Positions 56,506 to 57,337 of a DNA stretch of 64,000 bases are shown in pieces. Position 1 is the stretch's first letter. Every line of letters begins with the position of its first letter. The position numbers and the translations under genes were made by a program. The stretch is from Octopus vulgaris (Eukaryota): positions 23,870,001-23,934,000 of the forward strand of contig OX597842.1 in assembly GCA_951406725.2 (NCBI GenBank), written 5' to 3'. Under the pieces are notes generated by a model that did not search any database, was not told the origin of the DNA, and was given only the letters and a program-made list of their open reading frames with translations.

Positions 56506-56639
56506 ATATATATATATTCAACAATATAAAGAATGGCCATATAGGACATTCGACTCACTAGAAAGAGCAGCCAAACTCAAACCGCTAAATAGTTGTAATT
56601 CTGAAATAGAAAGAGAAATAAAAACGTTTACCCCTTTCA

Positions 56640-56734
56640 TCTCTGGACTATGCATAGTTTCGGCAAACTTAGGCAAATAAATTAATTAAATTAAATTAAA
56701 TTCATTTATATCTGGCATTCCTCGTCAGCAGAGA
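56640..56734 (-). ncRNA. Type I hammerhead ribozyme (antisense copy)
   Basis: Reverse complement of the 56971-57065 motif with the core intact (tcgtcag at 56722-56728; gactatgcatagtttc). Confidence 0.75.
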
Positions 56735-56970
56735 GCCTAGGACGAGTATATGTCCACGAGGCTATGGTAAAGAAGCCTATTTCTAGAATTTTTTGCTACC
56801 CTTATATATATTTATTAATTAATGATATTTTGGCTAATTTTGAAATTAAATCAGCAGTTTATATTTGCTGCTGAGTAGACCACGTGATTGCGGTAGAATT
56901 TTGAAAATTTAGAGCATATGGACTGGAGGCTTCTTTACCATAGCCTCGTGGACATATACTCATCCTAGGC

Positions 56971-57065
56971 TCTCTGCTGACGAGGAATGCCAGATGTAAA
57001 TGAATTTAATTTAATTTAATTAATTCATTTGCAAAAGTTTGCCGAAACTATGCATAGTCCAGAGA
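56971..57065 (+). ncRNA. Type I hammerhead ribozyme (Penelope-type) with extended stem II
   Basis: tctctg-CTGACGA(56977-56983)-gg...cc-GAAA(57044-57047)-CTATGCATAG-TC-cagaga. 6-bp stem I, palindrome ACTATGCATAGT, predicted cleavage after 57059. Confidence 0.8.
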
Positions 57066-57337
57066 TGAAAGGGGTAAACGTTTTTATTTCTCTTTCTATT
57101 TCAGAATTACAACTATTTAGCGGTATGAGTTTGGCTGCTCTTTCTAGTGAGTCGAATGTCCTATATGGCCATTCCTTATATTGTTGAATGTATATTATAT
57201 AGTCTTTGACTATATTTTCTTTCTCACTAGTCCACTGGTAGTGGAGAACTTTTTCTACAATTTTTTGCTACCCTTATATTTATTAATTAATGATATTATA
57301 TATATATATATTATATTATATTATATTAAATTAGAGA

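Follow-up and report, generated by a model that had tools for sequence, protein, structure and literature searches.

The window, meaning the whole 64-kb stretch of octopus DNA that was analysed, holds a two-armed, non-coding insertion that abuts a tRNA gene and lies in the predicted intron of a host gene. The features of the locus are these:

52610..63695, plus strand: predicted intron holding the insertion, in an inferred gene model for a secreted protein with a PAN-like domain
56423..56506, minus strand: tRNA-Ser(AGA), a host neighbour outside the element that flanks its A end; first acceptor pair mismatched
56510..56778, minus strand: inverted arm, a 5'-truncated unit piece (unit positions about 101 to 370) whose site A end lies in a short (TA)n
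56640..56734, minus strand: type I hammerhead on the inverted arm; cleavage predicted at 56646/56645, helix II mismatch at 56719
56777..56826, plus strand: 5'-truncated end of the preceding unit (positions 423 to 471), which makes a short direct repeat
56827..57298, plus strand: full non-coding unit, 472 nt, 33% GC, with the site B end (about 57287) in (TA)n
56971..57065, plus strand: type I hammerhead with 6-bp stem I, long AU-rich helix II extension, 4-bp helix III and palindromic loop; cleavage predicted after 57059, helix II with a private mismatch at 56986
57047..57058, unstranded: 12-nt palindrome that forms helix III; intermolecular pairing possible (predicted co-fold -17.3 kcal/mol)
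57196..57287, plus strand: tail between sites A and B, about 90 nt, missing from the inverted arm

The original prediction had described an inverted part, a short direct 3' repeat, a full unit and (TA)n without an ORF, and this layout was borne out by the repeats and by a scan of reading frames. The inverted arms (56510-56778 and 56927-57195) match over 269 nt at 97% identity and the direct repeat (56777-56819 and 57249-57291) over 43 nt at 91% identity, while the longest stop-to-stop frame overlapping the element has 92 aa and the unit lacks an RT plus GIY-YIG ORF. The 12-nt palindrome, also correctly foreseen, is found twice in the element, at 56647 and at 57047. Its two arms start at unit positions 101 and 423 and disagree at 4 positions where either allele is common in the family; the arms are thus not copies of one identical template pass. 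Assembled contigs from 4 runs cover parts of 56790-57300 and carry no information on ends, strand or circles.

Both ribozyme cores were claimed to be intact, which is true of the core nucleotides on either strand but not of the base of helix II. On the plus strand, CUGACGA (56977-56983), GAAA (57044-57047) and GUC (57057-57059) are joined by the expected 6-bp stem I (56971-56976 paired with 57060-57065), and on the minus strand the core lies at 56728 with its GUC ending at 56646. A type I descriptor search of the 64-kb window returned just these two matches, and an Rfam scan in gathering and E-value modes gave no hammerhead family match for either ribozyme. Three helices, an open helix I and covariation across the family mark them as type I hammerheads, with one helix II mismatch in the window copies. 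Helix II carries an extension of about 60 nt, whose distal hairpin is present as predicted in the plus arm, the minus arm having a variant instead. At its base, both window arms read GGAAU versus the GGCAC usual in most copies, which creates an A.G mismatch; GGAAU occurs in 2 of 142 matches, both from the window locus. Predicted pairing of helix II is about 0.02 in the window arms versus 0.5-0.97 in two family copies. Read-through RNA of either strand is predicted to form one long hairpin (269 bp, about -500 kcal/mol) that would sequester both ribozymes, with ribozyme stem probabilities of 0.00; these foldings serve as a guide only, helix I being under-called in family copies folded in context. 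The helix II mismatch, together with self-pairing on read-through, suggests that the window copy is likely a weak daughter.

The unit belongs to a large dispersed family. When the 472-nt unit (56827-57298) was compared with the 2.8-Gb genome, 99 matches came from the 40 of 2261 candidates that were scored, and an exact 24-mer from the 3' half of the ribozyme and an exact 23-mer from the tail occur 127 and 479 times genome-wide, respectively, with 0 occurrences of the controls in each case. This non-coding hammerhead repeat of about 470 nt occupies hundreds of TA-rich genomic sites. A second family, with a 490-nt unit that is 72% identical to the first over 346 aligned positions, has an equal plan, as does a third, which is more distant and likewise non-coding. 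Two whole sense ribozymes stand in tandem at 3 of 101 family-1 loci (L003, L027 and L180), which could release a monomer. The window locus has one sense ribozyme per strand rather than two complete ribozymes in tandem and is therefore unable, alone, to release a unit-length monomer; it is an ordinary copy of the dispersed family, and probably a weak one. Dropped from the counts were 11 duplicate loci, L203 (a likely segmental duplicate) and the A arm of L326 (mis-mapped start), as well as, in the arm analyses, arms below 85% identity and arms with ends other than A or B.

The core (CUGAnGA, GAAA and UH), present in both window arms, is retained in families 1 and 2 alike, a few copies showing C4-type changes. 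In an alignment of 15 distinct rows picked to cover the subfamilies of these two families, 95.6% of cells are paired, compared with 28-44% in slid controls, and 5 of 12 pairs have changed on both sides, spread over helices I, II and III; the covariation score was reached by 0 of 500 shuffles, and, the rows being related sequences, it reflects a handful of events. Retention of the core across subfamilies and these two-sided changes indicate that the fold is under selection. Conservation of the core above its surroundings, a point raised in the original prediction, fails to reach significance within family 1 (0.983 versus 0.955 for other columns, P = 0.08), where a slight excess is what one expects if inserted copies decay neutrally.

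Throughout the family, arms point outward, their 5' ends vary and their 3' ends fall at site A (about unit position 370) or site B (about 461). Two outward arms are found at 52 of 100 distinct family-1 loci: 32 of them pair an A end with a B end, 20 have a non-standard end, and none is AA or BB. The same pairing is seen at 18 of 26 two-arm loci in the ribozyme-picked subset, at 46 of 51 in the tail-picked set (0 BB) and at 16 of 17 in family 2, the family-1, tail-picked and family-2 sets being partly overlapping. One-arm ends in the ribozyme-picked subset (n = 35) comprise 26 A, 4 B and 5 other. Family 3 supplies two BB-like exceptions, read by eye (L235 and L237). The main arm reaches (TA)n in 69 of 100 family-1 loci. 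Opposite arms of one locus belong to one subfamily in 32 of 34 pairs (random pairs: 24% of 1418) and have rare alleles in common in 19 of 39 (random pairs: 62 of 1500), a sharing to which post-insertion conversion could add. These ends, the A/B pairing, the targets, the shared subfamilies and the arms of more than one unit are read directly from the sequence.

A partial tandem, an inverted 5'-truncated copy, a tail at one end (here about 90 nt) and a microsatellite target together make up the insertion structure of Penelope-like elements (PLEs). With a probability of roughly 80%, we regard the locus as one two-armed insertion of the dispersed hammerhead repeat of about 470 nt, likely pasted by a Penelope-like RT/GIY-YIG protein acting in trans. 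The element itself would be a non-autonomous, non-LTR retrozyme with a Penelope footprint, and it is from that footprint that we infer the PLE partner. Genome-wide copies, covariation and the footprint thus uphold the original idea of a retrozyme-like, non-autonomous Penelope-like element. The twin layout appears to be insertion geometry, likely a by-product of Penelope-type pasting: twin ribozymes would result wherever neither arm is too short to include one, and at 17 of 100 loci both arms take in the complete ribozyme span.

The enzyme, the priming, the circle and the cleavage are the parts of the mechanism that we infer. The PLE protein would bind the unit RNA and its endonuclease would cut a TA run on both strands; reverse transcription would be primed at A by one of the DNA ends and at B by its counterpart, from a single RNA or from sister RNAs, and the two truncated cDNAs would be joined head to head. 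A circular RNA or an incompletely cleaved multimer, derived from the few loci with tandem units, would serve as template, and some of these molecules would end at the ribozyme cut. Several observations touch on this template. The predicted cut is crossed by 61 of 131 arms, and 27 of 130 arms are longer than one unit, which implies that a circle or an uncut multimer was the template in many cases. The 5' end falls within 30 nt after the predicted cut in 24 of 86 arms, the background rate being 0.097 per 30 nt, and on the second pass it lies within 45 nt after the cut in 7 of 14. This pile-up was seen in 14 of 26 arms (25 loci) at discovery and was less marked in a further 49 loci (10 of 46, P = 0.017), where counting one arm per locus gave 6 of 30 (P = 0.13); omission of loci with near-equal arm starts left 12 of 72 (P = 0.02). 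Such a pile-up just past the cut is an indirect hint of in vivo cleavage and may reflect either cut RNA ends or polymerase pausing at structure. We put forward more tentatively, as a proposal open to considerable doubt, that the insertions record a whole retrozyme cycle, in which a Penelope enzyme acting as a dimer would prime both ends of a cut TA run on a single RNA, always once at A and once at B, read past the cut and fall off where the ribozyme has opened the RNA.

The alternative that fares best keeps the PLE partner unchanged and has one arm reverse-transcribed from RNA, whose cDNA then folds back and primes itself to give the second arm, with trimming by the endonuclease at A or B. Near-equal arm starts are what it would produce, and at 14 of 43 AB loci the starts lie no more than 20 nt apart, versus 4.3 expected and matched by 0 of 20,000 shuffles. 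The common subfamily and rare alleles of the arms of a locus also suit it, and in the literature self-priming from palindromic junctions has been argued (Arkhipova 2013, PMC3846280) and the PLE tail is attributed to endonuclease resolution (Craig 2021, PMC8557442). Against this, at 19 of 43 AB loci the A arm extends further 5' while the B arm carries the tail, so that both have contiguous sequence missing from the other and neither arm is a simple mirror copy there. The window arms, starting at 101 versus 423 and differing at 4 family-common positions, speak the same way, and a shared RNA end also explains 6 of the 14 near-equal loci, at which both starts lie no more than 37 nt from the cut. 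We therefore consider fold-back priming unlikely, and take the two arms to be more probably separate cDNAs primed at A and at B.

A functional twin ribozyme that cuts transcripts of both strands, with a link to the tRNA gene and to the host intron, is a very improbable reading. Both cores are intact, the plus copy is sense to the predicted intron and, as had been noted, tRNA-Ser(AGA) abuts the left end of the element at 56423-56506 on the minus strand; yet only 17 of 100 loci have ribozymes on both arms, the tRNA is oriented away from the element, and helix II is mismatched in both arms, with full sequestration on read-through according to folding predictions. Cutting from either strand is hence unlikely unless transcription starts between the arms, read-through RNA being predicted to pair arm with arm. 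As 0 of 60 other loci (60 of 100 scanned) abut a tRNA, one tRNA lying about 430 nt from an element, we rejected the tRNA as an element part or preferred target; a functional role for it is not supported. At 56505, the TA run touches the first tRNA base, and the first acceptor pair is an A.C mismatch that the insertion may have altered. The plus copy does lie, as proposed, in the predicted intron of a secreted-protein gene (52610-63695), on an inferred plus-strand model whose exon ends at 52609 and continues in frame at 63696 across a GT..AG intron; the product is predicted to have a signal-peptide-like start and a PAN-like domain (Pfam PAN_1, 21.2 bits; cut-off, 21.4). A functional role for the intron position is not supported.

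The two-armed retrozyme reading calls for an autonomous partner. A GIY-YIG scan of the genome yielded 148 matches, among them intact 781-aa RT plus GIY-YIG frames with direct repeats of 456-504 bp. The partner search covered 87 GIY-YIG-linked loci of 6136 first-look candidates and returned no homologous autonomous element: 62 loci gave merely independent-looking or marginal matches, and 25 further ones had no homology to the unit beyond one junction. At that junction, a family-2 arm (L124:2111-2423, L265) is joined to the 3' end of an ORF-bearing PLE, near its A end, with 4-nt microhomology and without a TA run; it was set aside as partner evidence, since it could equally be the product of a nested insertion or of a template switch. 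One ORF-bearing RT plus GIY-YIG family ends at two sites about 40 nt apart and pairs A with B in 4 of 4 distinct two-arm loci read out (L269, L277, L278 and L283=L289). That the unit is instead the solo pseudo-LTR of an autonomous PLE is a remaining and highly improbable reading: its footprint matches a pseudo-LTR and just 87 of 6136 GIY-YIG candidates were looked at, but arms beyond site B enter the next unit and not an ORF, tandems reach 1019 nt, and the fragments of PLE ORFs close to 6 copies appear to be neighbours.

Several PLEs and other repeats were seen along the way. In a young RT plus GIY-YIG family (L103-L111), a frame of about 480 aa overlaps and precedes the 781-aa frame, and the 456-504 bp direct repeats are 99-100% identical; a canonical hammerhead was not found there. 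Another such family (L113, L153 and L164) carries, in the 3' repeat, a minimal motif resembling a hammerhead, of which the L153 copy is intact. A compact hammerhead-like motif with one core base changed lies in a piece of another repeat at 50470-50622 of the window, and the same motif recurs on both strands at L111:5700-6000. An unrelated repeat with a long-helix-II hammerhead (L051:150-600 and L162:4462) is two-armed in its L051 copy, with the motif on both strands, so twin layouts recur in other families. The window also contains four other small palindromic inserts flanked by TA runs (53162-53362, 53855-54232, 54691-54869 and 57305-57569; 83-94% self-complementary), which look like stubs of other two-arm insertions, as well as an 8-kb inverted duplication (1-7928 and 23355-31294, 97.7%) with 84-bp tandem arrays resembling C2H2 zinc-finger coding repeats, and a further inverted pair at 22662-24910 and 34976-37216.

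Retrozymes and the inverted and tail structures of Penelope elements are already known, and the octopus family is a further member. Metazoan non-LTR retrozymes, for which PLEs have been proposed as mobilisers by a mechanism stated as open (Cervera and de la Pena 2020, PMC7229834; Li, Clavereau and Pollet 2026, bioRxiv 10.64898/2026.07.22.740005), likewise have a non-coding, low-GC unit with one type I hammerhead, occur as monomers, dimers and short tandems, and share their genomes with PLEs. The 472-nt octopus unit is above the 170-400 nt given in PMC7229834 and within the 51-972 of the bioRxiv text, which portrays an active retrozyme as at least 2 tandem units with complete ribozymes. Unlike the retrozymes described there, the octopus family, described here from its DNA, is mostly scattered through (TA)n as insertions of one or two arms with fixed A/B ends and has a long AU-rich helix II extension. 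EN+ PLE insertions (Craig 2021, PMC8557442; Arkhipova 2013, PMC3846280) resemble it: they combine a partial tandem with a neighbouring inverted copy that is 5'-truncated, carry a tail on one side, favour (TA)n targets and have a hammerhead in the repeat. The octopus unit differs in lacking an ORF and in a tail of about 90 nt rather than 30-40. Palindromic helix III and dimers figure in Cervera 2014 (PMC4209133), against whose minimal PLE form the octopus ribozyme has a helix I of 6 bp and a helix III of 4 bp.

The closest biochemical parallel is the Poseidon PAc protein, which, as shown by Frangieh 2024 (PMC11167929), extends both strands in vitro from two internal start sites that bound the tail, at an AT-rich target and with frequent read-through of the ribozyme site, all of which the octopus insertions recall. 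That study reports no strand difference between start sites, whereas octopus two-arm inserts pair A with B strictly, and no reads ending at the cut site, whereas octopus 5' ends are enriched just after it. In the openly readable literature that was searched, neither this family in octopus or another cephalopod nor twin priming by PLEs was found described.

To conclude, the useful part of this locus is the footprint of its family, the twin ribozymes and the tRNA being incidental. The family gives exact predictions, namely two start sites 90 nt apart with strict A plus B pairing, and further predicts that copying passes the cut site and breaks off shortly past it. If the insertions do record the whole cycle tentatively proposed above, they would show PLE-driven retrozyme mobilisation, would account for the tail and inverted repeat of PLEs by asymmetric twin priming, and would be evidence of hammerhead cleavage in the germ line.
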